DNA of 62,091 bases from Candidatus Peribacteraceae bacterium (GCA_030750465.1 JASMHZ010000003.1:1-62091); one strand, 5' to 3'; counted from the stretch's first letter, positions 10,685 through 58,667 are shown. A program made the numbers and translations. Notes: generated by a model from the sequence alone, not told the origin.

Positions 10685-10775
10685 GTTTTTAGTTTATTGG
10701 TTTTTAGTTTTTAGTTACATAGATTTTCATAGTTTTTTATAGAGAACCAAAAACCAGAAACCAAAAACCAGTAAA
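10685..10775. repeat. Inverted heptamer array (TTTTTAG/TTTTTGG vs AAAACCA)
   Basis: tgtttttagtttattggtttttagtttttag...aaccaaaaaccagaaaccaaaaacca. Confidence 0.65.
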
Positions 10776-12086
10776 CTATCCAATACCTATTCCGTGATAC
10801 TCAAGCCCGACTTCACGTACTTCATCTGGCTCATATATATTTCTACCATCAAACAAATCATTGCCACGCATACATTGCTTTAATTGAACCAGATCTATTC
10901 CTCTAAACTCATCCCATTCGGTTAGAACCACTACAGAGTCGGCATCTTTAACTGCTTCAAGCGCATCTTTGCAGAAAGTGACCTGAGCTGGCAGGAGAGG
11001 CTTGGCTACTTCCATTGCAGCGGGATCAAATACTTTTACATTGTGACCTTTTTCAATCAACTCTGGAATTAGATCCAAGCTGGGGGCTGCGCGCATGTCA
11101 TCAGTCTTTGGTTTGAACGAAAGTCCAAGAATTCCGACGTTGGCGTTGGCAGGAAGAAGATCAGTAATTTGCTTAAAGAATCTTTTTCTTTGTCTTGCAT
11201 TGATCTTGTCAGTCGCTTCGACAATATCCATTGGAATTCCAAGTTCAGAAGCAGTTGCAAGCAGAGCCTTAACGTCTTTTGGGAAACAGCTTCCGCCGTA
11301 TCCGATGCCGGCATGAAGAAATCGGGGGCCAATCCTTGTATCAAGTCCTACTCCTCGTGCAACATCTCTTATATTAGCGCCTGTCTTTTCAGTCAGCTCA
11401 GTAAGCATATTTATAAAGCTGATCTTGGTAGCCAAAAGGGAATTAGCAGCGTACTTAACAATCTCTGAACTTTCTCGATTCATAAAAACAAGAGGCTTAC
11501 CGACTCTTGTAATGGGCCTATATAGATCTTCCATAAGATCACGAGCCCATTCGTTGTGATTTATTCCTATAACTACACGGTCAGGCATGATTGTATCGCT
11601 TACCGCCATTCCTTCGCGCAAAAATTCAGGATTAGAGATAACGGGAACTTGAAAGTTCACACCACGCTCTTTTAGAATCTCTGAAATTTTTTCTTCGCAA
11701 AGCTTTCCTGTTCCAACTGGCACAGTCGACTTGTTTACAAAAACAATGTCGTGGTCAGCGTGTCTTGCCACAGTCTCGGCTACTGTAAAAACAGCCCTAA
11801 GGTCAGCCTTGTATCCTTCACCGGGAGGAGTTGCGACAGCGGAAAAGACGATTTTAACGTTTGGCAAAACTTCAGTCAGGTCAGTTGTAAAACTAAGCCT
11901 TCCATTCCTTAAGCCTTCTTGAAGAATCTCCTGAAGGCCAGGTTCGTAAATTGGGCTCTCTCCCTTCTTGCATTTTTTGATTTTCTCTTCGTCAATATCT
12001 ACTCCATACACTTCATGCCCCAATTCCGCGAAACATGCGGCGGAAACAAGGCCGACATAGCCGGTGCCAATAACTGCTATTTTCAT
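10776..12086 (-). CDS. ugd: UDP-glucose 6-dehydrogenase
   Basis: GTGYVGL, KSTVPVGT, NPEFLREG, KYAAN, GYGGSCFPKD, FKPKTDDMR, DGRN. Confidence 0.92.
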   Translation of the reverse strand: MKIAVIGTGYVGLVSAACFAELGHEVYGVDIDEEKIKKCKKGESPIYEPGLQEILQEGLRNGRLSFTTDLTEVLPNVKIVFSAVATPPGEGYKADLRAVFTVAETVARHADHDIVFVNKSTVPVGTGKLCEEKISEILKERGVNFQVPVISNPEFLREGMAVSDTIMPDRVVIGINHNEWARDLMEDLYRPITRVGKPLVFMNRESSEIVKYAANSLLATKISFINMLTELTEKTGANIRDVARGVGLDTRIGPRFLHAGIGYGGSCFPKDVKALLATASELGIPMDIVEATDKINARQRKRFFKQITDLLPANANVGILGLSFKPKTDDMRAAPSLDLIPELIEKGHNVKVFDPAAMEVAKPLLPAQVTFCKDALEAVKDADSVVVLTEWDEFRGIDLVQLKQCMRGNDLFDGRNIYEPDEVREVGLEYHGIGIG

Positions 12087-12149
12087 AGAAGCGTAGTCTA
12101 TATTAAAGACGACCTAATACTAGAAAAATTACAAAGTAAATTGGGCTTT

Positions 12150-12247
12150 AATTGACAATGAACAATGGACAATTGACAATTCTAAAGAATCACCAAGCTA
12201 GTTGTTCGCTTGCGTAATTGTTAATTGTCCATTGTCAATTGTTAATT
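12150..12247. repeat. Family A palindromic heptamer element, copy 2
   Basis: Same arms; core ttctaaagaatc...gttgttcgcttgcgt. Confidence 0.85.
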
Positions 12248-12267
12248 TTTACTAGATTCTACATACC

Positions 12268-13203
12268 ATGAATAAGATTCTAGTTACCGGCTCTGTTGCC
12301 TACGATGTACTCCTCGGCTACGACGGCGAATTTGCAGATACAATTGATCCTCAGGCGCTTGAAGCACTCTCAGTTTCCTATTTCTCTCCGCATTACGCGC
12401 GCCACTTTGGAGGAACGGGAGCGAATATTGCATGGGGATTGAAGCTATTGGGTCAGGAGCCGATTCTGGTCAGTTCAGTCGGGCATGATGGGGATGATTA
12501 TTTAGAGAAGCTCGGATCAAAAAACATTTCAACCGATCACATTAAGAAAGTTTCTGATCATGTGACTGCAACTGCCATTATTAATACCGATAGCTCCGAA
12601 CATCAAATTGCATTCTTTCATCCCGGTGCCGATTCACATGGGCAATGGCCAAATGATCTCAGTCCATCAGAAATTTCTTACGCCATCATCGGTGCACGCG
12701 ATACGACAGCAATGGTTCAGGGTATGGAGTGGTGTTCGGAAAATAATGTTAAGACTTTTTTTGATCCCGGACAGCAGACAATCGCCTTTGGCGATGATGC
12801 ATTCGAGAGGATGGTTCACATGAGCGCAGGAATTATAGTTAATGAATATGAGTGGGAGGTTACGCAGAAGAAGTTAGGGTGTGATGCAAATGGAGTTCTT
12901 AAGATTTTAAGTCAGGTAGGTCAGGTAGGTGGATTTATTATTGTTACACTTGGAGACAAAGGATGCTTGTTGATAACTCACGATGGATCTGAATTGGTTC
13001 CAGCTGTGAAATCCAAAAAAGTGATTAATCCGACTGGAGCAGGGGACGGTTTTAGAGCGGGATTTCTTGCGGGGCTTAATGAAGGTCAGGATCTGATCTC
13101 GGCGTGTAAAAAAGGATGTGAGATGGGAAAGAGGGCAGTGGAACAGGAGGGGACGTTGTTGGAGGATATTGATAGGCCTCACAAAATTGACAATGAACAA
13201 TGA
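12268..13203 (+). CDS. PfkB-family carbohydrate kinase, adenosine kinase-like
   Basis: GSVAYD, FGGTGANIA, FFHPGA, FDPGQQ, NPTGAGDGFRAGF; adjacent to ahcY. Confidence 0.85.
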   Translation: MNKILVTGSVAYDVLLGYDGEFADTIDPQALEALSVSYFSPHYARHFGGTGANIAWGLKLLGQEPILVSSVGHDGDDYLEKLGSKNISTDHIKKVSDHVTATAIINTDSSEHQIAFFHPGADSHGQWPNDLSPSEISYAIIGARDTTAMVQGMEWCSENNVKTFFDPGQQTIAFGDDAFERMVHMSAGIIVNEYEWEVTQKKLGCDANGVLKILSQVGQVGGFIIVTLGDKGCLLITHDGSELVPAVKSKKVINPTGAGDGFRAGFLAGLNEGQDLISACKKGCEMGKRAVEQEGTLLEDIDRPHKIDNEQ

Positions 13204-13281
13204 ACAATTGACAATGCGCAAGCGAGAACAAATCTTGATTCTCTTTAGAATTGTCAATTGTCCATTTTCAATTGTCCATTA
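13185..13281. repeat. Family A palindromic heptamer element, copy 3 (inverted)
   Basis: Core gcgcaagcgagaacaa...ttctctttagaa is the reverse complement of copies 1 and 4. Confidence 0.85.
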
Positions 13282-13321
13282 AAAACGCTCAGAACTGCAA
13301 TATTTAGCACCAAAACGCCCA

Positions 13322-13460: not shown

Positions 13461-13540
13461 TAAGGGTACAAAGGAATTAAAGGGTTCAAAAGAGTCAAAA
13501 GATTCCTTTGTCTCTTTTGTCTCCTTTATACCCTTTTAGT
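13461..13540. repeat. Inverted nonamer array (AAAGGGTTC/AAAGAGTCA vs reverse complement)
   Basis: Purine-rich 9-mers followed by complementary pyrimidine-rich 9-mers. Confidence 0.65.
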
Positions 13541-19044: not shown

Positions 19045-19161
19045 AATTGACAATTGAAAATGGACAATTGACAATTGACAATTGACAATTGACAATTCTA
19101 AAGAGAATTTGAGCTTGTTCTCGCTTGCGCATTGTCAATTGTCAATTGTTCATTGTCAATT
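19045..19161. repeat. Family A palindromic heptamer element, copy 4 (expanded left arm)
   Basis: About seven AATTGAC-type units, same core as copy 1. Confidence 0.85.
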
Positions 19162-19203
19162 TGTTAAACAAAACCAATATCATTCATGTATGCTTGGTGC
19201 ATC

Positions 19204-21576: not shown

Positions 21577-21622
21577 TCGGGTTCGGTTTTCGGGTTCGGG
21601 TGCGGTATGATTATTGTCCATT

Positions 21623-22181: not shown

Positions 22182-22192
22182 TACATACACCT

Positions 22193-24088: not shown

Positions 24089-24523
24089 ATGCAACGAACA
24101 TTAATCCTACTAAAACCTGACTGTATGCAGAAAAAAATCTGCGGAACAGTTCTCAAGCGTTTCGAAGAAGCAGGTTTCAAAATTATTGGATGCAAGATGA
24201 TCAAGTTAGACTTAGAAACTCTCCGCGAACACTATGCGCACATAGCAGAGCTTCCTTTCTATCCGGAAGTTGAAAAGTTCATGAGTTTAACCCCTGTCAT
24301 CGGAATTGTTTTGGAGGGCGATGACATAATAAACAAAATGCGGGAGCTGCTTGGAGTAACAGATTGCTTGGAAGCTGCCCCCGGTACCATTAGAGCTGAA
24401 TTTGGAAGCAAAGAAGAAGGGGAGAACAAGATGAAAAATGTTGTTCATGCTTCGGACTCTCCGGAGACGGCGGAGAAAGAAATTGTCAGATTCTTTGGTG
24501 CTGATGAACTGTTTGATTACTAG
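24089..24523 (+). CDS. ndk: Nucleoside diphosphate kinase
   Basis: RTLILLKPD, EHYAH, PGTIRAEFG, NVVHASDS. Confidence 0.95.
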   Translation: MQRTLILLKPDCMQKKICGTVLKRFEEAGFKIIGCKMIKLDLETLREHYAHIAELPFYPEVEKFMSLTPVIGIVLEGDDIINKMRELLGVTDCLEAAPGTIRAEFGSKEEGENKMKNVVHASDSPETAEKEIVRFFGADELFDY

Positions 24524-24592
24524 TTGAAAGTTGTAAATGGTAAGTGGAAAATAATCTTTAATTTTCAACTTTCAACTTTCAACTTTCAATTT
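24521..24592. repeat. Inverted heptamer array (TGAAAGT/ACTTTCA) between convergent genes
   Basis: agttgaaagttgtaaatggtaagtggaaaa...ttttcaactttcaactttcaactttca. Confidence 0.65.
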
Positions 24593-25844
24593 CATCAGGT
24601 CTTTCACCGTCAACAAGAAATTCAATTGCTGCATCCAGTTGAGGATCTACTTCATCAATAATCTGCTCGCGAGTTCTATCAACTTCGATATCCGGATAAA
24701 CTCCTCCTTTACCAAGATCATTTCCGTCTGGAGTAAGCCATCTTGCTATTGTCATTCTGACTGACGCGTTACCGGGAAGATCAAATACTTCTTGCACAGT
24801 CCCTTTCCCAAAACTCTTCTTACCAACTATTGTTGCACGCTCGTGATCTTGCAATACACCTGCCAATATCTCTGAAGCACTTGCGGATCCTTCATTTATC
24901 ATCACGACCATAGGAATATCCGGATCACTTGGCCTTCCTGATACATAGTGGTGAGTAGGATCTCCATTTCTTCTTTCAACTGTAACCACTTTGCCTTCAT
25001 TTAGGAACATAGATGACATTTCTACAGATCCTTCCAGATATCCTCCTCCGTTAAACCTGAGGTCCAGTATGAGTCCGGCAAGATCCGCGCCTCTCATAAT
25101 ATCAAGTGCGGTTTTAATTTCATTTACGGAGTCCTCCCCAAATTGATTCAGGGCAATGTAGCCCACAGAACCTGTTTCAGTTTTCTTTATTTCATACTCA
25201 ACACTCGGAACTTGGATACTTGTCCTTATTATCTGAATTTTTATCGGCTCAGGTGCATCAGTGCGTGCGATTGTGAGTTCAATCTTCGAGCCCTTGGGGC
25301 CTCTGATCAATTGCACTACTTGATGCAGAGTTTGGCCGGCAATATTTTTACTATTAACATGAGTAATCACGTCTTCGGGTTCCAGACCTGCTTTCGAAGC
25401 AGGCGACCCTTTAAGTGGAGCGACTACTACAACAAGGCTGTCTCTCATGGTTAGTTCAGCTCCTATTCCTTCCAATTTACCCTGCAGAGCTTTCTGGAAA
25501 TCGCTGTTCTCCGAAGGTGTCATAAACGTTGTATAAGGATCTCCAACTGATCCAACCAGTCCTCCAACGGCTCCATAAACCATTTCAGGAGGATTTAACA
25601 TGTCAGGGTCTATGTAATGCGCCAAGAGCAGTCTCCATACACCCCACAAAAGCGAAAGATCAACTTCACGTTCGGGATCTGCGAGCAATGCCCCGCTCAT
25701 AGATTTTCCGGTATAAAGCAATTCCAGTTTTTCTGTCATTTCTACCACATGTCTTTGTTCATACCTGACTCCCAATTGCCAACCCAGGACTAGGGTTATA
25801 AGTGGAAGAATTATCAGTGTTGCGATGCGGAGGGGCTTGAGCAT
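24579..25844 (-). CDS. S41-family carboxyl-terminal processing protease with PDZ domain
   Basis: N-terminal TM, DPYT, GIGAEL, IRGPKGS, LDLRFNGGG, SASASEI, GKKSFGKGTVQ. Confidence 0.92.
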   Translation of the reverse strand: MLKPLRIATLIILPLITLVLGWQLGVRYEQRHVVEMTEKLELLYTGKSMSGALLADPEREVDLSLLWGVWRLLLAHYIDPDMLNPPEMVYGAVGGLVGSVGDPYTTFMTPSENSDFQKALQGKLEGIGAELTMRDSLVVVVAPLKGSPASKAGLEPEDVITHVNSKNIAGQTLHQVVQLIRGPKGSKIELTIARTDAPEPIKIQIIRTSIQVPSVEYEIKKTETGSVGYIALNQFGEDSVNEIKTALDIMRGADLAGLILDLRFNGGGYLEGSVEMSSMFLNEGKVVTVERRNGDPTHHYVSGRPSDPDIPMVVMINEGSASASEILAGVLQDHERATIVGKKSFGKGTVQEVFDLPGNASVRMTIARWLTPDGNDLGKGGVYPDIEVDRTREQIIDEVDPQLDAAIEFLVDGERPDEIES

Positions 25845-25895: not shown

Positions 25896-25993
25896 ACAAT
25901 CGACAATCGACAATCAACACGTTCGCTACGCTCACTTTCAACAAGTTGATTGTTGATTGTTGACAGCCCGCGTAAGCGGGCGTGTCGATTGTT
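25896..25993. repeat. Family B inverted heptamer element, copy 2
   Basis: acaatcg/acaatca arm, acacgttcgctacgctcact insert, ttgattg arm with a gcccgc...gcgggc hairpin. Confidence 0.75.
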
Positions 25994-28511: not shown

Positions 28512-28634
28512 AGAAACAGAGGAAACAGAGGAAGCAGAAGAACCAGAGGATCAGTCTGTATGAAAATTAGTAAGCCATATTTAAATAGTATCCTCTGATT
28601 CTTCTGTTTCTTCTAACTCTTCTGTTTCCTTTCT
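28512..28634. repeat. Inverted nonamer array (AGAGGAAAC vs reverse complement)
   Basis: agaaacagaggaaacagaggaagcagaagaaccagagga...tcctctgattcttctgtttcttct. Confidence 0.7.
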
Positions 28635-41019: not shown

Positions 41020-41058
41020 AAGGTAGATTTTTTATATAACCTTTTCTATCATCAGTTT

Positions 41059-43363: not shown

Positions 43364-43717
43364 AAACAGCGCATTCTTAAACCCCTCCAAACACAAAAAA
43401 GCACACTTAGACCTCCTCTTACTAATCGGAACCCCGAGCATTTCTCTAATATCATCCTCAGACATTTCAGTTGCATTCTTAACCTTCATCCCCTCCAGTT
43501 TTTCCCACAAGATCGACATTGCCCCCAGGCTAATTGCGCAACCCGAGCCTTCCCATGCAGCTTCCTTGATAGCTCCATCTTCAATTTTCAGATGAATCGT
43601 CAGTTTATCTCCGCATGCAAGGTTTACTTCCTCGTGCGAAACAGTTGGGTCCGCAAGCTCTCGCTTTCCGCGGGGGTTCTTGAAGTGATCCAGTATGTTC
43701 TCCGCATAAATGTTCAT
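43349..43717 (-). CDS. sufU: SufU/IscU-like Fe-S scaffold or sulfur-transfer protein
   Basis: YAENILDHFKNPR, NLACGD, GSGCAIS, RSKCA; adjacent to sufS. Confidence 0.88.
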   Translation of the reverse strand: MNIYAENILDHFKNPRGKRELADPTVSHEEVNLACGDKLTIHLKIEDGAIKEAAWEGSGCAISLGAMSILWEKLEGMKVKNATEMSEDDIREMLGVPISKRRSKCAFLCLEGFKNALFDLTP

Positions 43718-43740
43718 GTGTTGATTATACTTGCTACATT

Positions 43741-43814
43741 AAAGAGAAAAAGGAGATAAAGGAGATAAAAGAAATTCTTTTGACTCTTTTTACTCCTTTA
43801 ACTCTTTTGTCTCT

Positions 43815-43815
<1 letters not shown>
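43741..43815. repeat. Inverted nonamer array (AAGGAGATA vs reverse complement)
   Basis: aaggagataaaggagataaaagaaa...ctttttactcctttaactcttttgtctcttt. Confidence 0.7.
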
Positions 43816-45044
<1,229 letters not shown>

Positions 45045-45045
45045 A

Positions 45046-45157
45046 ACGAAGGAAACAGAGGAGCCAGAAGAAACAGATGAAACATAGGACTTTATCAAAA
45101 CAGAATATACAGCATTTCTCTTCTGCTTCCTCTGTTTCTTCTGTTTCTTCTGCTTCC
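45046..45157. repeat. Inverted nonamer array between divergent genes
   Basis: gaaggaaacagaggagccagaagaaacagatgaaac...ttctgcttcctctgtttcttctgtttcttctgcttcc. Confidence 0.7.
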
Positions 45158-45186
45158 ATATTAATATTTTGTGTTAATCTAACCTC

Positions 45187-47988: not shown

Positions 47989-48041
47989 TAAGAAGCAGTT
48001 TATTGTTTTCAGGAGGGCAAATCTGCGATAACCTTGCTCTG

Positions 48042-48710: not shown

Positions 48711-48713
48711 TTT

Positions 48714-48818
48714 ATTAGCTCATAGCTAATAGCTTTTAGCTTCATTAACTTTTCATATTTCTAGTTTAATAGTGGCACAAACAGAAGCTAACGAAGCTAT
48801 AAGCTAAAAGCTAAAATA
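48714..48818. repeat. Inverted heptamer array (TAGCTAA/AAGCTA type)
   Basis: attagctcatagctaatagcttttagct...aagctaacgaagctataagctaaaagctaa. Confidence 0.65.
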
Positions 48819-48868
48819 CTAATTATTCTAATGTAACTGAAGAAATTTGACGGTATACTCTAGTAACC

Positions 48869-49222
48869 ATGGACCTTACTTTCTACCAAATCATTGCTCC
48901 GGTTATTGCAGTCGTTGCAATTGTTTATGCATGGAGTTTGGTAGGTAGAAAAAAGAAAACTATGTGGGAGGGAATTTTGTGGACTTTATTCTGGGGGCTT
49001 GTGGCTTCGCTTGCCATGTTTCCGAACTTGATGAACTGGGTGTCCGCGGTTACCGGCATCAAAGATAGGGAAAACGCTGTCTTCATTACATTCTTTGGGG
49101 TTCTATTTTTCATTGTGTTCTATCTGGTTATGCGGCTTGAAGAGATGGAGCAGAGACAAACGAGAATCGTCAGGAAAATTGCTCTTAGGGATTCGGGATT
49201 GGATGAGGATGAAAAGGAGTAA
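48869..49222 (+). CDS. DUF2304-family membrane protein
   Basis: Three TMs, LW..FW, FP, TGI, C-terminal TRIVRKIAL; follows a DPM1-like GT2. Confidence 0.8.
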   Translation: MDLTFYQIIAPVIAVVAIVYAWSLVGRKKKTMWEGILWTLFWGLVASLAMFPNLMNWVSAVTGIKDRENAVFITFFGVLFFIVFYLVMRLEEMEQRQTRIVRKIALRDSGLDEDEKE

Positions 49223-49285
49223 AAGGGTTCAAAGGAGACAAAAGAGATAAAGGAGTTATTTTGTTTTATTTTACCTCTTTTACTT
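49213..49285. repeat. Inverted nonamer array
   Basis: aaggagtaaaagggttcaaaggagacaaaagagataaaggag...tttacctcttttacttt. Confidence 0.6.
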
Positions 49286-49298
49286 TAAGATATTGCAG

Positions 49299-50444: not shown

Positions 50445-51508
50445 AACCAAAAGTCGTCATCTACTCGGCATTCCTTACTCCCTTCCGAAGCGGGGCAGAG
50501 GCTTGCGCGGAGGAAGTGCCGCTCAGGCTCAAGCATGACTTTGATTTCACGATTATTACATCCAGACTAAGACGCAATCTTCCAAAGAAAGACATGCTTC
50601 AGGGGCATATACCTGTCATCAGGGTAGGGTTTGGTTCCAAGTTCGATAAGTGGCTGTTTCCATTCTTGGCCCCCTTGGCTGCCAGAAAACTTAAACCTGA
50701 TATTATTCACGCAATTCTGGAGACATTTGCTGGGCAAGCACTAATGCATAGTTCAGTAATAGTTTTTAAAGCCAAAAGAATTCTAACGTTACAAACAACG
50801 AACAGGAGTTTTAAGAAAAAAGAAATTACAAAATCACCGCACAAAGTAACTGCAATCAGTTCTGCACTTGTTAATTATGCAAAATCAGTTGGAAGGAATG
50901 ATGCTGTTCTTATTCCAAATGGGGTAAATTCAGAAGAAATAGAAAGTGCACTTGGATGGTATGAAAAGATTAAGGGAAGAATTCTATTTGTAGGAAGACT
51001 GGAACCTCAGAAGGGGGTTGATATTTTGTTGCAAGCGCTCGCTAAGTTTAAACAAGAAAATTGGGATTTGAATATTGTTGGTGATGGATCACAAAAAGAG
51101 ATTCTTACAAAACTAAGTCAAGATCTTGGAATTACGGAGCGAGTTCACTTCAAGGGTTATGTTGCCCCGCCTGATGTCTATAAGGAGTACGCGCAGGCGG
51201 AAATTTTCTGCGGTCTTTCCAGATCAGAAGCTTTGGGAAATGTGTTCTTGGAAGCACAAGCTGCAGGATGTGCAGTCATAGGAACAAAAACCGGAGGAAT
51301 TCCAGACATAGTCCAAAATGGAACAAATGGAATCTTAATTAAGCCCGATAATATTGATATGGCTGTTGAAGCTATTGGAAGACTCCTAAAAGATCCGTCA
51401 CAACGATCTAAACTATCCTCAGCTGGCAAAAAGAATGCTCAAAAGTATGACTGGGGGAGGATTGCTAAAGAATATGCACAGGTATATATGGAAGCAATCA
51501 AAGATTGA
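50441..51508 (+). CDS. GT4 glycosyltransferase
   Basis: IPNG, FVGRLEPQKG, SEALGNVFLEA, GGIPD. Confidence 0.9.
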   Translation: MKPKVVIYSAFLTPFRSGAEACAEEVPLRLKHDFDFTIITSRLRRNLPKKDMLQGHIPVIRVGFGSKFDKWLFPFLAPLAARKLKPDIIHAILETFAGQALMHSSVIVFKAKRILTLQTTNRSFKKKEITKSPHKVTAISSALVNYAKSVGRNDAVLIPNGVNSEEIESALGWYEKIKGRILFVGRLEPQKGVDILLQALAKFKQENWDLNIVGDGSQKEILTKLSQDLGITERVHFKGYVAPPDVYKEYAQAEIFCGLSRSEALGNVFLEAQAAGCAVIGTKTGGIPDIVQNGTNGILIKPDNIDMAVEAIGRLLKDPSQRSKLSSAGKKNAQKYDWGRIAKEYAQVYMEAIKD

Positions 51509-51518
51509 ATTAACTATT

Positions 51519-51620
51519 AACAATCGACACGCGCCTACGGCGCTTTCGACAATCAACAATCAACAATAAGTTGACTGTTGACAGTCTCGCTTTAACGAGA
51601 CGTGTTGACTGTCGATTGTT
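51519..51620. repeat. Family B inverted heptamer element, copy 3; overlaps the rmlA 3' end
   Basis: aacaatcgacac...tcgacaatcaacaatcaacaa...gttgactgttgac...gtgttgactgtcgattgtt. Confidence 0.75.
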
Positions 51621-52359
51621 TCAAGGCCTCATCTTTAGCTCCATCAACAATTAGTCTTTCTTTATTTCTAACCAAGGCCGAGGCCTTGAACAAACTTTCG
51701 AAAGTTCCTGCATCGACCCACTCATCGTTCAGGACCGTGTAACCAAGTTCGTTCTGATCTAAGTACCATCTCGTCACATCAGTAATCTCAAGTTCTCCAC
51801 GAGGTGAAGGCTTCAAGTTTTTGATAACATCGAAGCATCTGTTGTCATAAAGATAACATCCCGTTTGTGCCAAATTGCTCTTTGGCTGCAGTGGCTTTTC
51901 CTCAACAGACTTAACTAAAGTTCCATCAACTTCAACAACGCCGAATCTTTCCGGATCAGGTACTTCTTTTAGGAACACATGTCCTCCGTTTTGGAAAGAT
52001 TTGATAGAGGGGGATAGATCGTCGAAGAACACGTTATCGCCAAGAATGGCACAAACACTATCTCCAGCTGCGAATTCCTCTGCCATTCCAAGAGCTTGAG
52101 CAATACCCTTTGGATCCTCCTGAACCCTATATGTGCATCGGCATCCGTATCTGGATCCTGAGCCAAGGAATCGGGTGATTTGGTCGATATGCTCGGTTCC
52201 TGTAATCACGATAACCTGCTCTATTCCCGCTTTTTGCATGATTTCAAGCGGATATAAGATCAAAGGCCTGTGATACACCGGAAGCAGGCTTTTATTGAAG
52301 ACGTTCGTCAGGGGACGAAGACGCGATCCTGTACCGCCGCAAATAAGAACTCCTTTCAT
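51592..52359 (-). CDS. rmlA: Glucose-1-phosphate thymidylyltransferase (short form)
   Basis: GGTGSRLRPLT, KSLLPVY, Q..PKGIAQA, LGDN, DPERFGV, EEKP, PSPRGELEITD, WVDAGT. Confidence 0.92.
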   Translation of the reverse strand: MKGVLICGGTGSRLRPLTNVFNKSLLPVYHRPLILYPLEIMQKAGIEQVIVITGTEHIDQITRFLGSGSRYGCRCTYRVQEDPKGIAQALGMAEEFAAGDSVCAILGDNVFFDDLSPSIKSFQNGGHVFLKEVPDPERFGVVEVDGTLVKSVEEKPLQPKSNLAQTGCYLYDNRCFDVIKNLKPSPRGELEITDVTRWYLDQNELGYTVLNDEWVDAGTFESLFKASALVRNKERLIVDGAKDEALKQSTVNTSR

Positions 52360-52419
52360 TGGGCAGAGATTATTGGCTAATTTGTCGATTGGCAACTAAA
52401 ATTAAGGAATAATAGAACC

Positions 52420-53361
52420 ATGAATCTACTAATAACAGGAGCGGCAGGATTCATTGGTTCTCACTTCGCACTTAGACATGCGGAGCTGAAGCCTGAGGAT
52501 AAGCTGGTGATTTTGGATAAGCTTACATATGCGGGGGACAGAAGTTACTTAGACTCAATCGCAGATAAGATCGAATTTGTTCACGGAGACATCGCAGATC
52601 AGCGTCTAGTAAATCAGCTTGTCGAAAATCATCAGATAGAAGTGATTGTAAACTTTGCGGCGGAGACCCATGTAGATAATTCAATCAAAGAAGCTTCGCC
52701 TTTCTTGCACACAAATGTAATTGGAACTCAAAGTCTAATCGAAGTTGTTAAGGCATATCCGGAAGTTCTGCTTCTGCACATTTCAACTGATGAAGTTTAT
52801 GGAGGACTTGCAGACGGCCAGCCTCCTTGCACAACCGAAACTGCACTTAACCCATGCAATCCATATTCAGCATCCAAAGCTGCGGGAGATTATCTGGTAC
52901 TTGCTGCTGTTCATACGTACGGAATACGCGCGCGCATCACGCGTTGCACAAATAACTACGGTCCGCATCAGGCAAGTGAAAAGTTTTTACCAGTTGTAAT
53001 CGGGAGTGCATTAAAAGACCAGCCAATTCCTGTTTATGGAGAAGGGAAGCAGAAGCGCGATTGGCTTTATGTTACGGACCACACGGATGCAGTGGAGTTA
53101 GTCTTGGGCAATGGTCAGGATGGAAATATATATCTAATTAGCGCTGATTCAGAAAGAGAAAACATAGAAACTGCAAAGAAAGTTCTGGATGAACTTGGAA
53201 AACCTCATGATCTTATTGAATTTGTAACTGACCGTCCGGGACACGACTTCCGATATGCACTTGATTCAAGCTCAATAAAAGCACTCGGGTGGAGTCCTAA
53301 AGTAAATTTCGAGGAAGGACTGAAAAAAACAATCGAGTGGTACTCAAATCGTGTATCCTAA
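52420..53361 (+). CDS. rmlB: dTDP-glucose 4,6-dehydratase
   Basis: DKLTYAG, NFAAETHVD, STDEVYG, YSASKA, NNYGP, RDWLYV.DH, DRPGHDFRY. Confidence 0.95.
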   Translation: MNLLITGAAGFIGSHFALRHAELKPEDKLVILDKLTYAGDRSYLDSIADKIEFVHGDIADQRLVNQLVENHQIEVIVNFAAETHVDNSIKEASPFLHTNVIGTQSLIEVVKAYPEVLLLHISTDEVYGGLADGQPPCTTETALNPCNPYSASKAAGDYLVLAAVHTYGIRARITRCTNNYGPHQASEKFLPVVIGSALKDQPIPVYGEGKQKRDWLYVTDHTDAVELVLGNGQDGNIYLISADSERENIETAKKVLDELGKPHDLIEFVTDRPGHDFRYALDSSSIKALGWSPKVNFEEGLKKTIEWYSNRVS

Positions 53362-53366
53362 TAAAT

Positions 53367-54446
53367 ATGAAAATCGTCTTAGCAACGGGAATATATCCTC
53401 CGGATATCGGAGGGCCGGCAACATACGTTAAACAATTGGCTGAGGAGTTACGTCAGGGTGGGAATGAGGTGGTGGTGGTTACATATGATAAAAAGAACGA
53501 AAGATCGGAAGATCGAAAGATCGAAAGAGTATCGATTGGGTTACCAGTTCTGCGGTGGTTTAAGTATGCGAAGGCATTGAAGAAAGTTGGATCTGATGCC
53601 GATATTGTTTATGCATTTTCATCAATCAGTTGTGGCATTCCTGTTAAGATCGCGAGACTCAAAAAGCCAAGAAAGATTCTAAGGTTAGGCGGTGATTTCT
53701 TTTGGGAACGGTATACAGCTTTAGGGGGAGGGTTAGGGTTAGGGGGATGGTATGGGAAACGATCTAAGGTTTTCGGTTGTCGGTTGTCGGTTGTCGGATG
53801 GATTCTTAAGAATTTTGATCATGTTGTTTTTTCAACCGAGTTTCAACAGAAATTATATCAAGAGAATTTCAAGAAGCTTCCTTCTCACTCAGTAATAGAA
53901 AATGCGGTGCCCGAAGGACATACTGAAATACATGTAAAGCGCGAACCCTTCAGCTTATTGTTCATGGGACGGTTAGTAGGATTTAAAAACTTAAAGTCTC
54001 TAGTTGAAGCGGTTAAACAAATGGCGAACGTAAGGCTTACATTGGTTGGAGATGGTCCAAAGAAAAAAGAACTAATGAAACTCGCCGGTTCCGCCGGAAC
54101 CAGAATTATGTTTGTGTCTCCTGTGCACGGCGAAGAAAAGATAAAGGTATTTGCAGGGCATGATTTGATGGTTATTCCTTCAATAACAGAAATCAGCCCG
54201 AATGTTGCACTTGAGGCGCGAGCAAACGGACTTCCTGTTCTACTTACGGAAGAAACAGGACTTAGTCCTGCTCTAAGTGAAGCAATGGTACTCAGAAATC
54301 TTTCAACTCCCGAAGATATCATCAATGCAATCAAAGAAATGCAGGAGAATTATTCCGATATTGCGGATGTGACAGGCAACCTGACCCTCAAAAGAGGGTG
54401 GAAAGAGGTTGCAGAAGAACACATGAATCTTTTTAATGAGTCTTGA
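53367..54446 (+). CDS. GT4 glycosyltransferase with repeat-derived inserts
   Basis: TGIYPPDIGGPATY, FMGRL..FK, EISPNVALEA. Confidence 0.88.
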   Translation: MKIVLATGIYPPDIGGPATYVKQLAEELRQGGNEVVVVTYDKKNERSEDRKIERVSIGLPVLRWFKYAKALKKVGSDADIVYAFSSISCGIPVKIARLKKPRKILRLGGDFFWERYTALGGGLGLGGWYGKRSKVFGCRLSVVGWILKNFDHVVFSTEFQQKLYQENFKKLPSHSVIENAVPEGHTEIHVKREPFSLLFMGRLVGFKNLKSLVEAVKQMANVRLTLVGDGPKKKELMKLAGSAGTRIMFVSPVHGEEKIKVFAGHDLMVIPSITEISPNVALEARANGLPVLLTEETGLSPALSEAMVLRNLSTPEDIINAIKEMQENYSDIADVTGNLTLKRGWKEVAEEHMNLFNES

Positions 54447-54448
54447 AG

Positions 54449-55582
54449 ATGAAATTACTAATGATCTCAGGCGACCGATCCATTCTACAGCGCAAGCAAG
54501 GAGCTTTTTGGTACACGCTTCAGGAACTTAGAAAGCATTTTGATCAGATTGATGTAATTACGCCTCAGATCATTATTCCGCGGCTAAAAGGGGAATCTAA
54601 GTCAAAAGCTGGAGAATCGGCGCTTATTGGTGGATCCGTGTTTTTCCATCCATGCCCGAATCGTTTACTTAGGCAGCCAAGATGGATAGTTAAAAAAGGC
54701 AAGGAGCTTATCAAAGCATTCGGGCACGATGTCATGACGGTTCACGAATATCCTCCCTTTTACAATGGAATCGGAGCCAAGAAGTTGGCAAAGAAAATGA
54801 ATATTCCTTATGCACTTGAGGTTCACCATATTGTGGGATATCCAAAAGCTGTAACTACGTCCGAAAGAATCGGAAAGATGACTTCCAAGTCGTATTTTCC
54901 GCGTGCAGCCAAAAGTGCGACTGCAATTAGAGTTGTGAACAAGGAGGTCGGAGGAAAGCTTCTTACATGGGGAGTGCCAAAGAGCAAGATTAATTTAGTC
55001 CCATCTTTCTATTTGGACGGAGATATTCTTACAACAGATCATGCTCCTCCCGTAATTTATGATGTTGTATTCTGCGGCCGATTGGTTCCAAATAAAGGAT
55101 TGGAAAATTTGATTCTCGCAGTCAGCAAGTTGAGTAATGTGCGCTTGGCAGTTATTGGAAGCGGACCGGAACTGCTTAATCATGAAAAACTAGTGAGCAA
55201 ACTAGGTCTGGACAATCTGGTCACTTTTCTAGGTTGGCTTCCAACACAAGAGACTGTTGTGGGGGCTTTATTAAGCTCAAGAATTTTCGTAATGCCTTCG
55301 CAAAGTGAGGGGGGACCAAGAAGTTTATTGGAAGCAATGGCGGTTGAGATGCCAGTGATTACAACTCCTGTAGGTGTTGTTCCGGAGATTATCGAGGATG
55401 GAGTAAACGGTATTATTACAAACGGAGAACCTGATGATATGGCTGAAAAAATAGAATCTTTGTTAGCGGACGAAAAGCTTAGAAAAAAGATGGGGAAGGA
55501 AGCCGGGAAAATAATGGATATTTATGAGAGAAAAAATCTTGTTAAGGCGTATGCTGATTTTCTTAAATCATTATGCGATTGA
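54449..55582 (+). CDS. GT4 glycosyltransferase
   Basis: FCGRLVPNKG, SEGGPRSLLEAMA. Confidence 0.88.
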   Translation: MKLLMISGDRSILQRKQGAFWYTLQELRKHFDQIDVITPQIIIPRLKGESKSKAGESALIGGSVFFHPCPNRLLRQPRWIVKKGKELIKAFGHDVMTVHEYPPFYNGIGAKKLAKKMNIPYALEVHHIVGYPKAVTTSERIGKMTSKSYFPRAAKSATAIRVVNKEVGGKLLTWGVPKSKINLVPSFYLDGDILTTDHAPPVIYDVVFCGRLVPNKGLENLILAVSKLSNVRLAVIGSGPELLNHEKLVSKLGLDNLVTFLGWLPTQETVVGALLSSRIFVMPSQSEGGPRSLLEAMAVEMPVITTPVGVVPEIIEDGVNGIITNGEPDDMAEKIESLLADEKLRKKMGKEAGKIMDIYERKNLVKAYADFLKSLCD

Positions 55583-56580
55583 TGATAATCACACAAAAGG
55601 TCGATAGATCCGATCCCATACTCGGATTCTTTCATGGTTGGCTTCTGGAATTTGCTTTACATTGCGATCAGATACATGTGATAGGGCAAATGAAGGGAGA
55701 TTACGACTTGCCTGATAACATCAAGATCCACTCAATGGGAAAAGAGTCAGGAGCTTCAAAATTAAGTCAGATTCTAAAATTCTGGAAACTACAATGGTTA
55801 CTCAGGCATGATTATGATTGTGTTTTGGTGCACATGACTCCGGTCTGGGTAGTTCTTGGATTTTTCAATTGGTTCATACTCAGAAAGAAAGTTTACCTTT
55901 GGTACGAGGCGCGCGGAGGAGGATGGACTCTGCCGATTTCGCTTCGATTAGTTAAAAAAGTATTCTCAGCTACCGAGTACGGACTTCCGCGCTCCTCAAA
56001 AAAAAGAGTAATCACGGGTCATGGGATTGATACGGAGTTTTTCAAACCCTCAGGTGTGACCCAAAAAGGTTTAGTTTCTAGTGTTGGGAGAATTACAAAA
56101 AGAAAACACTTCGAAGTTATTCTTAAGGCTTTTTCGGAACTTCCATCTGATTACAGATTGGAAATTGCAGGAGTTACGATAAGAAAAGATGATGAAGTGG
56201 AGTTAGAAAGCTTGAAGAAGCTTATGAATGAACTAGGAATTGCTGATCGAGTTAAAATAAAACAAATGACTCATGAGGAGGTCAGGAATCTTCTGCAAAG
56301 ATCTGAGTTGATGTTGCATGCGTGCAGAGGAGGACTCGACAAAATTGTACTTGAAGCGATGTCAGTTGGATGTTTGACGATATCTTCATCCAAAGCTGCT
56401 GGCCATGTTCTTCCCACGGAAGGCTTAAGTATAGATGAAGAGATGGGGGAGAGGGCGAATGAGGTTTTAGGATTATCGAATGATGAAAGAGCGAAGTTGT
56501 CAGAGCAACTACGTCAGCAAGTTATTGAAGGCCACAGCCTCGGGAAATTGGTGGGGAGGTTGGTGGAGGAGATGAAGTAA
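55573..56580 (+). CDS. GT4 glycosyltransferase
   Basis: DPILGFFH, GHGIDT, VGRI..RK, GLDKIVLEAM. Confidence 0.85.
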   Translation: MRLMIITQKVDRSDPILGFFHGWLLEFALHCDQIHVIGQMKGDYDLPDNIKIHSMGKESGASKLSQILKFWKLQWLLRHDYDCVLVHMTPVWVVLGFFNWFILRKKVYLWYEARGGGWTLPISLRLVKKVFSATEYGLPRSSKKRVITGHGIDTEFFKPSGVTQKGLVSSVGRITKRKHFEVILKAFSELPSDYRLEIAGVTIRKDDEVELESLKKLMNELGIADRVKIKQMTHEEVRNLLQRSELMLHACRGGLDKIVLEAMSVGCLTISSSKAAGHVLPTEGLSIDEEMGERANEVLGLSNDERAKLSEQLRQQVIEGHSLGKLVGRLVEEMK

Positions 56581-56601
56581 AACTTCAATTTGTATAGTAA
56601 G

Positions 56602-56698
56602 CTAATCAATTGATTAGTTGACTAGTAACAGTGTGTCACTAAAGGAACCATTCGCGCGAATGGTAGAATGTTGAAAGAAGGTATGTGCGCACATACCT
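56602..56698. other. Three perfect palindromes in a row between convergent genes
   Basis: ctaatcaattgattag (56602), accattcgcgcgaatggt (56647), aggtatgtgcgcacatacct (56679). Confidence 0.8.
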
Positions 56699-56716
56699 AC
56701 ATAGTTGTTGACAGGA

Positions 56717-57742
56717 TTAGATTGCTTCCCTCAGCCTCCTGCTTGTCTCCTCAACCTCCTCAATCGTCTGATCCTCGCGCATATGTGGCCTTTTTTCCTC
56801 ATATAGCTTCATTAGTTCATCTCTACTTGGAAGAGCCCTGAGGGGATAAGGATTTCCTTTGATCTTTGTATAAAGCTCCTGAATAGTGCATATAGAAATC
56901 ATTCCAGAAAGAACGCCAAAGAGCATATTACTGCTCCATTTTTCATTTGGAGGTTCGGTAAAGTACGAGAGGGTCTGCTCCGGTTTCTTAAAGTAATTCA
57001 GTAGCATCACGGGGCCACTGAGGCCGGAGAAGCCTGCCCAATATTTCTTCTGTTCCCCTTCCGGAACTATGTAGCATCGATAACCTTTTTTAAGAAGTTC
57101 TTCATTGGCCTTATCAAAAGTATCGTATCTGGTTGGATTCTTGGATATGCCTGAATGTGTGTTTCCATCACATGGACCTAAGTGTAAATTCTCTTTTTCG
57201 AAAACGAGTTCACGGTTGAAAGCAATGCAGTAACTTGAACTTGGTGGAATCCTTTTCCCATCAATATCAAATTCCCACCATTTGCGGTGGCGGAAGCTGA
57301 CTGTTGCAGTACTGGGGTCAGCAAACTCCTTTTCAACAACATCAACTGCTTCACCACTGAGCAAAAACATATCATCATCGCAAATCCATCCTATCTTTCT
57401 ATTTTTAGCAATGTGCCTGAGGAATTCTTCTGACTTGGTTGCGGCATAGAAATTCAAAAACTTATGCAATCGCGCTTTGGGGAATTCTTTTGGATTTAAT
57501 TTGCCGGATGAATCAAAAATAGTTATATCAACTCGGTCACCCAGATACTTAGTTGCCAAGTGATACCACACTGTCATCATCGGTGGAAGAATGTTCATTG
57601 TGAAGAGTGCGGGCTTTCCCGACTCAGGCAAAGGCTTCCTCCTCATGTAATAAAAGGCGGTTGGTACACCGGTTCTAATAGCCTTAACGATACAAAAGCG
57701 CTTGAATGCACGGGGGAGTATGGTGACGTATCGGTAGGCCAT
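56717..57742 (-). CDS. Hypothetical protein, possible GT-A-fold glycosyltransferase
   Basis: WICDDDMF DxD-like motif, YDT motif; glycosylation context. Confidence 0.6.
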   Translation of the reverse strand: MAYRYVTILPRAFKRFCIVKAIRTGVPTAFYYMRRKPLPESGKPALFTMNILPPMMTVWYHLATKYLGDRVDITIFDSSGKLNPKEFPKARLHKFLNFYAATKSEEFLRHIAKNRKIGWICDDDMFLLSGEAVDVVEKEFADPSTATVSFRHRKWWEFDIDGKRIPPSSSYCIAFNRELVFEKENLHLGPCDGNTHSGISKNPTRYDTFDKANEELLKKGYRCYIVPEGEQKKYWAGFSGLSGPVMLLNYFKKPEQTLSYFTEPPNEKWSSNMLFGVLSGMISICTIQELYTKIKGNPYPLRALPSRDELMKLYEEKRPHMREDQTIEEVEETSRRLREAI

Positions 57743-57755
57743 GAGGAAATGATAG

Positions 57756-57818
57756 AGTGTGTAGTGAGTAGTTGGTAGTGAGTAGTTGATTTTTTTAATC
57801 CTACTCACTACACACTAC
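57756..57818. repeat. Inverted heptamer array (TAGTGAG/CTCACTA)
   Basis: gtgtgtagtgagtagttggtagtgagtag...ctactcactacacactacacac. Confidence 0.65.
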
Positions 57819-58561
57819 ACACTCGAAATATAGAACCCACTTTGTCCGTCAGTTTCAGTCCCATACTTCAATTTATCGATTGTGAATCCGTAACCTTTAA
57901 GTAACTTTTTGAAGAACTTCTTTTCATATCGCACACAATGCAGAGCTCCTTTCCAATCCTGTTTATAATTTGGAGGGTTTTCTTCCATCTCAGGCACGTT
58001 ATCTTCGGTGAATGCAGTCAGGAATACTTTTCCTGTGGTTTTAAGAAGCCTTTTGAACTCGGTTAAATAAGCTTGAATATCAGGCGTCTTCATATGTGAA
58101 AATACCGAGTACAAGTAAATCACATCAAAACTTGCGTCAGGAAACGGAAGCCCGACCGAACTGGAACCAGATGGATTATATCTCTCGTTCTTAATATCCA
58201 TATGAGTAAACTGAAAAGTTGGATGTTCCTTTTCTATGTACTTAGAGCACCACTCAATCGGAGTCTGGCTTACATCCACTCCACGGTACGCACGTATTTC
58301 TCCTATCTCGCTCAGGATACCAATTGGAAGACGGCCCGGCCCGCAACCAAGATCAAGCAAAGCCATATTTCTGCTCAGGCCGAATGAGCTTTGCAGACGC
58401 TGGGCTTCTTGCTCTCCGGAAGACAAAAATGCTTCATCATCGATAAAATTTGATCCTCCGAAGCGCAAATGCTTTGCGGGGATAGTCATTCCTCTGTGAG
58501 TAATAGCCTCTGATTTAACGAAACTTTTAAGTTTCTTAGCGGTTTTTTGGATGGCGGGCAT
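57815..58561 (-). CDS. Class I SAM-dependent methyltransferase
   Basis: LLDLGCGPGR, GVDV, LPFPDASFD, SVFSHM, RLLK..G. Confidence 0.9.
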   Translation of the reverse strand: MPAIQKTAKKLKSFVKSEAITHRGMTIPAKHLRFGGSNFIDDEAFLSSGEQEAQRLQSSFGLSRNMALLDLGCGPGRLPIGILSEIGEIRAYRGVDVSQTPIEWCSKYIEKEHPTFQFTHMDIKNERYNPSGSSSVGLPFPDASFDVIYLYSVFSHMKTPDIQAYLTEFKRLLKTTGKVFLTAFTEDNVPEMEENPPNYKQDWKGALHCVRYEKKFFKKLLKGYGFTIDKLKYGTETDGQSGFYISSV

Positions 58562-58581
58562 TGGAGAGGCATTGTACCAGA

Positions 58582-58667
58582 TAAAGAAGCAGAAGAAGCA
58601 GAAGAAGCAGAAGATTCAGAGGATTTTCTTTTGTTTCTTCTGAATCCTCTGATTCCTCTGATTCCTT
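58582..58667. repeat. Inverted nonamer array (AGAAGAAGC/TCCTCTGAT)
   Basis: agaagcagaagaagcagaagaagcagaagattcagagga...ttcttctgaatcctctgattcctctgattcct. Confidence 0.75.

Follow-up and report, generated by a model that had tools for sequence, protein, structure and literature searches.

Why should so many intergenic spacers of a reduced bacterial genome hold a short tandem array followed by its own reverse complement, with units that change from one spacer to the next? The question is raised by a 62,091-nucleotide (nt) stretch of DNA from Candidatus Peribacteraceae bacterium (GCA_030750465.1, JASMHZ010000003.1:1-62091; hereafter the window), which is one whole 62-kb contig of an assembly, G000, of 1.0 Mb (82% complete, 42% G+C). 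An earlier note, made from the sequence alone, had pointed to such inverted 7- and 9-mer arrays in eleven spacers and had suggested that they might be hairpins acting on mRNA or scars of a mobile gene. We propose that they are gene-less members of stem cassettes of the intervening-sequence (IVS) type, which form roughly a dozen families with slow turnover, and we put the probability of this reading at about 55%. In its complete form such a cassette is a long imperfect palindrome, with arms of tandem 7-, 8- or 9-nt units and a loop carrying a gene of ~120 codons for a four-helix-bundle protein (PF05635/TIGR02436). This protein family was first found within 23S rRNA intervening sequences and is distant kin of Avd of diversity-generating retroelements.

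The link between arms and gene comes from a profile search with PF05635, which gives 12 matches in G000; 11 of them exceed the cut-off. The window contig has none, and the earlier note had likewise seen no gene of this (IVP) family there. Every one of the 11 full genes sits between inverted arms, whose scores are 16–37 and inner distances 287–473 nt. Each of these cassettes has a different unit; nonamers include GAAACAGAA and AAAGGAGAC, and heptamers AGTGAAT, GTCACAA, AATTTTC and GGGAATT, with a GGGAAT-type unit around the cassette at C1:18925 (contig and position in G000). In the seven same-genus genomes compared with G000 (eight in all, with 11–21 PF05635 matches per genome), the 25 genes tested all lie between inverted arms, mostly of period 7, 8 or 9; the earlier note's statement that IVP genes are often flanked by similar arrays thus holds in G000 and in its relatives. 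Two cassette proteins match the NCBIfam model TIGR02436 ('four helix bundle protein') at 105–113 bits and Avd, a retroelement protein, weakly; the cassette protein belongs to no known transposase fold or family. In co-directional spacers the gene lies on the same strand as its neighbours in 5 of 5 cases in G000 but in 8 of 15 in the relatives, which gives no rule of orientation. An unbiased long-gap search for filled pairs returned 45 matches against 31 in the control, swamped by neighbouring hairpins of the same family and by low complexity.

The window holds hairpins of this build without the gene. They are named by start coordinate (43740, 45050 and 49212 are the earlier note's 43741, 45046 and 49213). 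For the eleven sites of the note, each line gives the arm-to-arm alignment score and how many of 200 dinucleotide-preserving shuffles reach it; six further hairpins of the same build follow, which brings the total to 17.

10685..10778: heptamer hairpin, arms GTTTTTA / AACCAAA (score 19, 0/200); takes up the spacer that separates a UDP-glucose 6-dehydrogenase-like from an epimerase-like gene, both on the minus strand
24521..24594: heptamer hairpin, arms GTTGAAA / TTTCAAC (score 19, 0/200); between convergent ndk-like and C-terminal-protease-like genes, left arm beginning at the stop codon
29617..29747: heptamer hairpin, arms AATTTTC / GAAAATT, loop 56 nt (score 24, 0/200); 8-copy family, with full-length matches elsewhere in G000 and in G005
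48714..48817: heptamer hairpin, arms TAGCTTA / AAGCTAA (score 19, 0/200); between co-directional genes; 14-copy family
57756..57823: heptamer hairpin, arms AGTGAGT/AGTGTGT (score 18, 0/200)
13461..13535: nonamer hairpin, AAAGGNNTN purine arm followed by a pyrimidine arm (score 16, 0/200)
28512..28630: nonamer hairpin, GAAACAGAG arms (score 25, 0/200); between recO-like and ftsX-like genes; 40-copy family
43740..43817: nonamer hairpin, AAAGGAGAT arms (score 23, 0/200)
45050..45158: nonamer hairpin, GAAACAGAR arms (score 23, 0/200); between a divergent sufS-like gene and a 933-aa open reading frame (ORF)
49212..49284: nonamer hairpin, AAAGGAGTA arms, right arm decayed; the weakest of the eleven (score 14, 1/200, folding z −2.4/−2.0)
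58582..58667: nonamer hairpin, AAGAAGCAG arms (score 19, 0/200); between divergent genes
9643..9738: heptamer hairpin, AATTGAC arms, its loop a conserved 34-nt module; outside the eleven, same class
12150..12251: AATTGAC hairpin with the same 34-nt loop module as 9643
13185..13280: AATTGTC hairpin of the AATTGAC family, loop module inverted
19045..19167: AATTGAC hairpin, upstream of pheT
25896..25963: heptamer hairpin, ACAATCG / GTTGATT, with a small GC-rich hairpin nested beside its right arm
60691..60755: AATTAAC/AATTGAC-like heptamer hairpin, weak

At all eleven named sites the sequence, read directly, is a tandem array, a loop of ~14–56 nt and the reverse complement of the array, as the earlier note had it; the arms are mostly listed by Tandem Repeats Finder, and a Smith–Waterman partner search recovers 11 of 11. 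The five heptamer sites have five different units (GTTTTTA at 10685, GTTGAAA/TTTCAAC at 24521, AATTTTC at 29617, TAGCTTA at 48714 and AGTGAGT at 57756), again as described, and the nonamers are of two types, one AAAGGAGNN-like (13461, 43740 and 49212) and one GAAACAGAG/AAGAAGCAG-like (28512, 45050 and 58582). Arm-to-arm scores of 14–25 stand against shuffle means of 6.5–10.7, and RNA folding z-scores range from −2.0 to −8.2 on either strand. Complementarity is thus greater than in composition-matched sequence, 10 of the 11 sites outscoring all 200 shuffles. All 17 hairpins lie between protein ORFs or at ORF ends, among genes that make up a housekeeping set typical of a reduced bacterium (e.g., PBP1A, pheT, sufS, ftsX, recO and ndk). 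At the gathering threshold Rfam finds two tRNAs in the window and nothing else, with no match for the hairpins.

Shared arms and shared sites join the hairpins to the cassettes. A census of G000 (described below) yields 170 gene-less hairpins, 117 of which have an arm type in common with one of the 11 cassettes. For example, the arms of hairpin 29617 match those of the cassette at C8:1285, the arms of 13461 those at C55:51610 and the arms of 28512 those at C7:15971; arms with the unit of 57756 bracket IVP genes in three relatives (G005, G007 and G003). At two sites the forms are allelic. Window 9643-9738 corresponds to G005:C17:7937-8248, with the same flanks, the same AATTGA[CGT] arms and a PF05635 gene between the arms in G005, the closest relative of G000 (86–95% identical). 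Similarly, C63:11895-12102 of G000 is a gene-less hairpin with TAGCTT arms at a site where G001, G002 and G007 have orthologous genes; the arms in G001, a distant relative, are TAGCTTCGT. More broadly, of 27 cassette sites in G005 and G007, 20 could be placed in G000 by both flanks. The gene is present in nine of these 20, and the 11 gene-less sites hold a tandem hairpin (four), gaps of 61–141 nt (four) or gaps of 392–840 nt (three). Further loci add two hairpin sites, together with empty sites and sites of a different, GC-rich palindromic element.

The earlier note had proposed a genome-wide catalogue of arrays and a search for the protein family between the arms; the catalogue comprises 170 loci and the family is PF05635. 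We took Tandem Repeats Finder arrays of period 6–10 and searched each by Smith–Waterman alignment for a reverse complement at most 150 nt away (score ≥14), with the reversed-only array, the complement-only array and a direct copy as controls. Tandem Repeats Finder gives 1167 rows in 1.0 Mb, with period peaks at 7 (291), 9 (262) and 8 (123). A reverse-complement partner was found for 290 of 779 non-redundant arrays, against 17 for the reversed-only control, 91 for the complement-only control (a figure inflated by low complexity) and 74 for direct copies. Pairing is concentrated in heptamers (138/279), octamers (50/116) and nonamers (99/248), and is rare in hexamers (2/98) and decamers (1/38). 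After merging, the 170 gene-less loci, 17 of them in the window, have a median length of 97 nt, a median arm of 37 nt and 74 distinct canonical units. An excess of intergenic arrays with 5–11-nt units, the feature of short tandemly repeated repetitive (STRR) sequences or long simple-sequence repeats, is thus present here; inverted pairing lies outside that definition.

Whole-element comparison reduces this diversity. Of the 170 hairpins, 128 have a homologue with coverage of 85% or more in each of the two elements; these 128 group into 13 families of 40, 16, 15, 14, 8, 8, 8, 6, 4, 3, 2, 2 and 2 members with 67–87% identity. Most of the 13 families have a gene-bearing counterpart. The earlier note's phrase 'one architecture, many sequences' is therefore right about the architecture, which recurs at 11 of 11 sites, and has to be narrowed as to the sequences, since the many shrink to about a dozen old families. 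The AATTGAC family also shares a loop module of ~34 nt with constant ends (TCTAAAGAG... / ...GTTCTCGCTTGCGC) and a short variable, self-pairing centre; it can lie in either orientation and recurs at non-orthologous sites of G000, G005 and G007.

9674-9707, 12182-12214, 13217-13248 and 19098-19130, window: copies of the AATTGAC loop module
C44:5042 and C7:16918, elsewhere in G000: further copies of the module

Turnover of the hairpins is visible in orthologous spacers, which we compared in G001, G004, G005 and G007. A contig of G007 is syntenic with the entire window (gene identity 73–91%). Filled and empty alleles, which the earlier note had suggested comparing across strains, both occur in these same-genus genomes, as do replaced and gene-bearing ones. 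Seven of the 17 window hairpins (9643, 10685, 12150, 24521, 25896, 45050 and 48714) face only 0–41 nt in G007, where the neighbouring genes abut or overlap; three (19045, 28512 and 29617) are replaced in G007 by hairpins of other units; and four hairpins occur in G007 only, where the window has 6–22 nt. Hairpin 10685 is found again in G001 (75% local identity), and the orthologous spacer measures 41 nt in G007 and 3 nt in G004 and is taken by a different, GC-rich element in G005. Site 12150 has 35 nt in G007; 25896 has 0 nt in G007 and 23 nt in G005; and 48714 has a gap of 0 nt in G007, the stop and start of two genes overlapping. At 24521, G007 has 29 nt and G005 has a hairpin with AATTGAG units instead of GTTGAAA and with the 34-nt loop module.

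Replacement follows the same pattern. Both 28512 and 19045 have a ATTAGCAG hairpin in G007, and 29617 has an AATTGAC-type hairpin there. At 43740, G007 and G005 have hairpins of other units and G001 an unpaired hexamer array. Site 49212 is largely missing in G007 and holds an AATTGAT heptamer hairpin in G001 and G004, and 58582 has other-unit nonamer hairpins in G001 and G004 and a GC-rich palindromic element in G005. Smaller changes occur within hairpins: at 45050, where G007 has a gap of 0 nt, the G005 hairpin is one 9-nt unit shorter (73% local against 87% overall identity), and at 19045 in G005 the loop module is absent and every right-arm unit reads ATTCTCA, not ATTGTCA. Overall, hairpins shared with G005 are 52–73% identical within a surrounding alignment of 80–92%; 10685 and 57756 are the two that are better kept than the others. 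In same-genus genomes most hairpins are absent, replaced or far more diverged than the sequence beside them. Where G007 lacks the hairpins at 45040-45190 and 48700-48870, divergent start codons are only ~20 nt apart at the first and a stop and start overlap (TAATG) at the second. With starts this close and co-directional genes that overlap, promoters must sit within genes. In 43000-61000 there are 15 Sigma-70-like promoter matches, where shuffles give 36.5 ± 6.1.

The position of the hairpins bears no mark of gene orientation. With genes called by a naive longest-ORF rule (899 ORFs in G000), co-directional spacers hold 86 hairpins, convergent ones 29 and divergent ones 26, while 21 overlap ORF ends or interiors and eight lie at contig edges; for the eleven named sites the counts are eight co-directional, one convergent (24521) and two divergent (45050 and 58582). 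The median share of a spacer taken up by its hairpin is 68%. The rates per adjacent gene pair are nearly equal (co-directional 0.170, convergent 0.173, divergent 0.159), and therefore orientation does not matter. The earlier note's statements that all three spacer types are occupied and that termination alone is no explanation both stand, the first from the ORF list and the second from this equal density: termination cannot be the whole story if the rate is independent of gene orientation. Intrinsic terminators, with a GC-rich stem, short loop and T run downstream of genes, were rejected as a class for these elements, since none of the seven hairpins in 43000-61000 was called and divergent spacers have the same rate. 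The transcribed strand shows no bias in folding energy or G-U pairing (22 versus 21 and 24 versus 19). Polarity is marked: 53 of 59 nonamer hairpins, and 18 of 21 clearly skewed octamer ones, have their purine-rich arm on the 5' side, a pattern that reads identically on both strands.

Several nonamer hairpins of G000 lie within long naive ORFs (C11:101478-101599, C4:4035-4103, C11:79817-79967, C1:33952-34066 and C3:13367-13495). Arms made wholly of purines or of pyrimidines have few or no stops in any frame and can therefore fuse or extend ORFs. Such extension fits what the earlier note had called coding-sequence invasions. Directly upstream of the RNase III gene at C6:3698-4339 lies a hairpin of TTAGCTTCA type, C6:3560-3654; the rnc leader of E. 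coli, which is self-cleaved, offers a parallel.

How might such elements persist in so compact a genome? On the reading that we prefer, they would be old selfish or neutral residents of spacers, with no signature of a host function. Replication slippage would add and remove units, and a variant unit could sweep through one arm by within-arm homogenisation. Loop content would be exchanged or lost between homologous arms, which would turn a gene-bearing element into a gene-less one, and deletion of the palindrome would leave an empty site; spread to new spacers would be only occasional. The comparisons show at least one case each of unit gain or loss, of homogenisation of a single arm, of loop content replaced or lost between homologous arms, and of a whole palindrome deleted. 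The 20–60-bp RNA stems would be substrates of RNase III, by analogy with rRNA IVS stems, and a cut by this enzyme would excise the element from the host transcript, making insertion between tightly packed genes tolerable.

The history of the cassettes themselves gives some support to limited movement. Arms are identical in type where the proteins at orthologous sites are at least 73% identical, and related or different where they are 53–67% identical; in the C55 cassette one arm is ~70 nt longer in G000 than in G005 through extra units. Two cassettes at non-orthologous sites, L042 and L050, encode proteins 77% identical and have TAGGACK and TAGAACT arms; L039 and L047, likewise at non-orthologous sites, encode similar proteins and both have GGAATAYT arms. 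Such pairs point to occasional movement of whole cassettes.

A number of observations weigh against our reading, or at least against its mobile part. Cassette proteins at orthologous sites are reciprocal best hits (53–100% identity, against a paralogue median of 38%), and the cassettes are therefore mostly vertically inherited. No near-identical copies exist in any family, identity being 67–87% throughout, and contigs of four metagenome runs from four studies agree exactly with the window over the parts that they cover, mostly stopping at hairpins; a single joint, 28547 to 28591, probably stems from another copy of the family. From the absence of near-identical copies and the matching contigs, there is no sign of current mobility. 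No transposase linked to the hairpin elements was found, and no target-site duplication was seen by eye in 11 filled/empty junction alignments with G007, whose flanks are only ~80% identical. Gene remnants are nearly lacking in the gene-less loops, with one weak match among 170, and the 34-nt loop module of 9643 has no counterpart in the allelic G005:C17 cassette. Pooled over all sites with both flanks mapped in G000 where a relative's gene is absent in G000, a gene-less tandem hairpin occupies 6 of 17, with clearly the same arms at two; given a base rate of ~0.17 per spacer, this enrichment is modest, about two-fold. Across 23 sites, protein identity and arm similarity, by a crude measure, are uncorrelated in a Mantel test (Spearman 0.04, reached by 824 of 2000 permutations). 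The two arms mirror each other unit by unit only weakly: in 12 of 169 hairpins, at most 5 of 100 unit-order shuffles reach the observed score. The 57756 hairpin is 97% identical in G007 within 82% flanks and is absent from the closer relative G005 except for ~21 nt, a possible remnant; its conservation above the flanks could reflect selection on at least some copies, recent transfer or recombination. Finally, three genomes of the phylum with 5–7 gene copies have no paired array among 40. The earlier note's idea of scars of a mobile gene thus survives in its link to the gene (11 of 11 and 25 of 25 genes between arms) and in the two allelic sites, whereas recent travel is not supported, in view of mostly vertical inheritance at fixed sites, the lack of near-identical copies and the lack of gene traces in the loops.

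Some of these points would be expected if the palindromes were a mutational by-product of AT-rich spacers, growing in place by slippage and intra-strand template switching, with the genes merely co-located. Units do change in place, both in the window (19045 and 24521 against G005) and in cassette arms; unit numbers differ between close relatives; near-identical copies are lacking; and most loops are unlike between copies, only 15 of 84 loops of at least 18 nt resembling another, with imperfect delimitation of the loops. Heptamer excess in other bacteria is ascribed to slippage in the accessible portions of PMC4679880 and PMC4692102. We still think this explanation unlikely. Genes between arms in 11 of 11 and 25 of 25 cases are too regular for mere sharing of spacers; full-length homologues tie 128 of 170 hairpins into 13 families; the conserved AATTGAC loop module sits at non-orthologous sites in three genomes; hexamer and decamer arrays of the same genome almost never pair; and the purine-5' polarity of the nonamers is not predicted by slippage alone.

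Selection by the host for RNA structure, whether as RNase III or other processing sites, as mRNA stabilisers, as bidirectional terminators or as operon punctuation in a near-spacerless genome, would account for very stable stems on both strands (z to −8.2), for the large share of the spacer that hairpins fill, for an RNase III gene (237 bits in G000) with one hairpin directly upstream, for A/purine-rich 5' and T/pyrimidine-rich 3' arms that read the same both ways, as in bidirectional terminators, and for the preservation of 57756 in G007 and of 10685 in distant G001. It sits poorly with a density in divergent spacers that matches the other two types, with abutting genes at the empty G007 sites of 7 of 17 hairpins, with shared hairpins that diverge faster than their flanks, with the absence of a G-U preference on the transcribed strand, and with the simple terminator pattern, which none of the seven hairpins in 43000-61000 shows although 22 terminator-like sites were called there; we regard it as quite improbable. 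Movement by Y1 (HUH) tyrosine transposases of the RAYT/IS200 type, as in REPINs (doublets of repetitive extragenic palindromic, REP, sequences), has in its favour four Y1_Tnp ORFs in G000, one IS200-like and three RAYT-like, and the description of REPINs as hairpin-forming doublets spread by RAYTs in the available part of PMC3116915. Yet the inverted repeats on either side of the Y1 genes are GC-rich palindromes rather than tandem-unit arms, no tandem hairpin brackets a Y1 gene (the nearest lies outside the GC-rich flanking repeats), and REPs are single short palindromes with no tandem arrays. We give this origin hardly any weight.

The association extends beyond the genus, if unevenly. PF05635 occurs in 71 of 121 sampled genomes of the phylum. 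In 20-kb samples from several of these genomes, arrays are paired in two other gene-rich families (23/51 and 16/54) and marginally in a third (6/44 against 5 in the control), and none of 35 arrays is paired in five genomes that lack the gene. Across phyla we scanned species genomes with a back-translated motif, many matches being estimated as chance; 46 of 80 loci passed a hidden Markov model filter and 42 were testable. Flanking inverted arms were found at 20 of these 42, against 7 in the reversed control, and tandem arms at 10, from Gemmatimonadota, Acidobacteriota, Planctomycetota, a cyanobacterium, a clostridial genus, Omnitrophota, Flavobacteriales and Peribacteria. Two records of 'Candidatus Peribacteria' are among the cassette-bearing loci, and a GGGAAT-type unit occurs in a Longimicrobium record. 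The architecture around the gene thus recurs in at least seven other phyla or groups, and the same unit motifs recur across phyla. It is tempting to speculate, and we would call it doubtful, that the IVS of 23S rRNA is a special case of widespread hairpin-bounded cassettes, that the element's own Avd-like four-helix-bundle pentamer serves as a maintenance or mobility factor on iteron-like arms (as DNA hairpins or RNA), and that gene-less progeny of such cassettes include the inverted arrays of candidate phyla radiation (CPR) bacteria and perhaps the STRR/P6b stems of cyanobacteria and the GGGAATC pairs of Xanthomonas.

The 23S rRNA IVS of Coxiella, Leptospira and others, with its S23p or four-helix-bundle ORF, is ~430 nt long with a 28-bp stem as described in the accessible text of PMC4990558. 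Complete cassettes here are of similar size (arms plus 287–473 nt); in both, terminal inverted repeats form a long stem whose loop holds a PF05635 ORF, occurrence is sporadic and a mobile origin has long been suspected; a gene for RNase III is found here too. The elements in G000 differ in lying between protein-coding genes, in having arms of tandem 7–9-nt units, in the gene-less state of the window copies (loops of 14–56 nt) and in number, with 11–21 gene-bearing copies per genome and 170 gene-less ones in G000 against one per rRNA operon. RNase III excises the rRNA stems there (PMC4990558); here, excision would follow by analogy. As for the window hairpins being 23S rRNA IVSs themselves, we found no 23S gene in G000, and all 17 hairpins adjoin protein ORFs, in spacers or at ORF ends. 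In relatives, 23S genes are far longer than the model span that they cover (e.g., 4562 nt for 2925 positions) and must therefore hold large insertions; PF05635 has no match on the 23S contigs of four relatives.

G004:C27:2865-7426: 23S locus with insertions
G001:C68:36511-39659: 23S locus with insertions
G005:C16:12352-14211: 23S locus with insertions

Heptamer arrays are known from cyanobacteria and xanthomonads. Small dispersed repeats of Nostoc reportedly nest in heptamer repeats, according to Elhai and colleagues in 2008. The P6b stem of the Nostoc tRNA-Leu intron resembles the hairpins here in the sections of PMC4476775 available: it consists of tandem 7-nt units paired with their complements, changes length by whole units on one or both sides, shows motif-class replacement at the same site, has side hairpins within the stem and shares the motifs AGTGAGT (as in 57756) and GTTGATT (as in 25896). 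It differs in setting, an intron and spacers of large cyanobacterial genomes as opposed to spacers of a 1.2-Mb CPR genome, and in that nonamers and octamers are as common as heptamers here; those sections make no link to a four-helix-bundle protein. In Xanthomonas, GGGAATC arrays are intergenic heptamers, often an array plus its inverse, with 70–75 in convergent inverted pairs, mostly conserved gene neighbourhoods, and length and sequence variation between species (PMC4692102, in the portion accessible). The GGGAAT-type unit that brackets C1:18925 and one Longimicrobium cassette adds to the likeness. By contrast, the Xanthomonas arrays have one unit type and are read as G-quadruplex-forming (PMC4692102, same portion), against 74 canonical units here; S23p and IVS terms occur 0 times in the PMC4692102 text.

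MITEs (miniature inverted-repeat transposable elements) and REPINs are, in the accessible part of PMC3116915, short non-coding intergenic families that form hairpins and whose ends are related to those of a rarer gene-bearing form. Small GC-rich hairpins nested in the arms here add to the resemblance. Here, however, the gene-bearing form lacks a known transposase, the arms are tandem arrays rather than unique terminal repeats, no target-site duplication was seen by eye at the G007 junctions, and the copies are old. Membership in MITEs was rejected on the identity of the gene: 117 of 170 hairpins share arms with gene-bearing cassettes, but the gene encodes a four-helix bundle and no transposase. 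Membership in REPINs was rejected on the repeats around the Y1 genes, which are GC-rich and palindromic and not tandem-unit arms. A literature search, supplements aside, turned up no account of four-helix-bundle genes that lie outside rRNA between arms of tandem repeats, and none of hairpins like these in CPR bacteria.

Other repeats share these spacers. A RAYT-like Y1 gene at C4:21039-21473 (L032:1281-1863) has 34-nt inverted repeats, each containing a GC-rich palindrome, and the IS200-like gene at C5:24677-25114 has a GC-rich repeat of 20 nt on either side; such Y1-flanking repeats may have given rise to the small nested GC hairpins. One of these lies at 25964-25990, beside the right arm of 25896, with a GTAA loop (GCCCGC GTAA GCGGGC), and comparable ones occur in G007 hairpins (e.g., across from window 489-510); the loops at C32:492 and C44:7943 contain them too. 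A second, GC-rich repeat class has a 23-nt tandem unit, GACCTCACCCCCGGCCCCTCTCC, and long palindromes on CCCCTCTCC/GGAGAGGGG; it occupies the G005 spacers orthologous to 10685 and 58582, and two sites with an IVP cassette in relatives. Hexamer and 13-mer arrays (TTAGGG, GGTTCG, CGGGTT and TCGGTTT) are common and almost never have an inverted partner, though the cassette at C44:1713 does have GGGTTCGGTTTTC arms.

42773-42866 and 40969-41037, window: GC-rich repeat class
C61:31982-32264 and C16:615-955, elsewhere in G000: GC-rich repeat class
7357-7409, 8187-8238, 21569-21605, 38274-38318, 44043-44080, 53721-53744 and 60146-60178, window: hexamer/13-mer arrays

For a streamlined genome of ~1.2 Mb, the hairpins are an expense: 170 loci multiplied by a median of 97 nt come to nearly 2% of the sequence. 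They also have practical consequences, breaking short-read assemblies (contigs of four metagenomes end there) and causing ORF-calling artefacts at gene ends. Beyond this genus, the hairpins connect the origin of rRNA intervening sequences, unexplained for thirty years, with the abundant TIGR02436 proteins and with the heptamer arrays of several bacterial groups. Cognate alleles with and without the gene, filled and empty sites in close relatives and a gene for RNase III are all available, and the system is now open to test.

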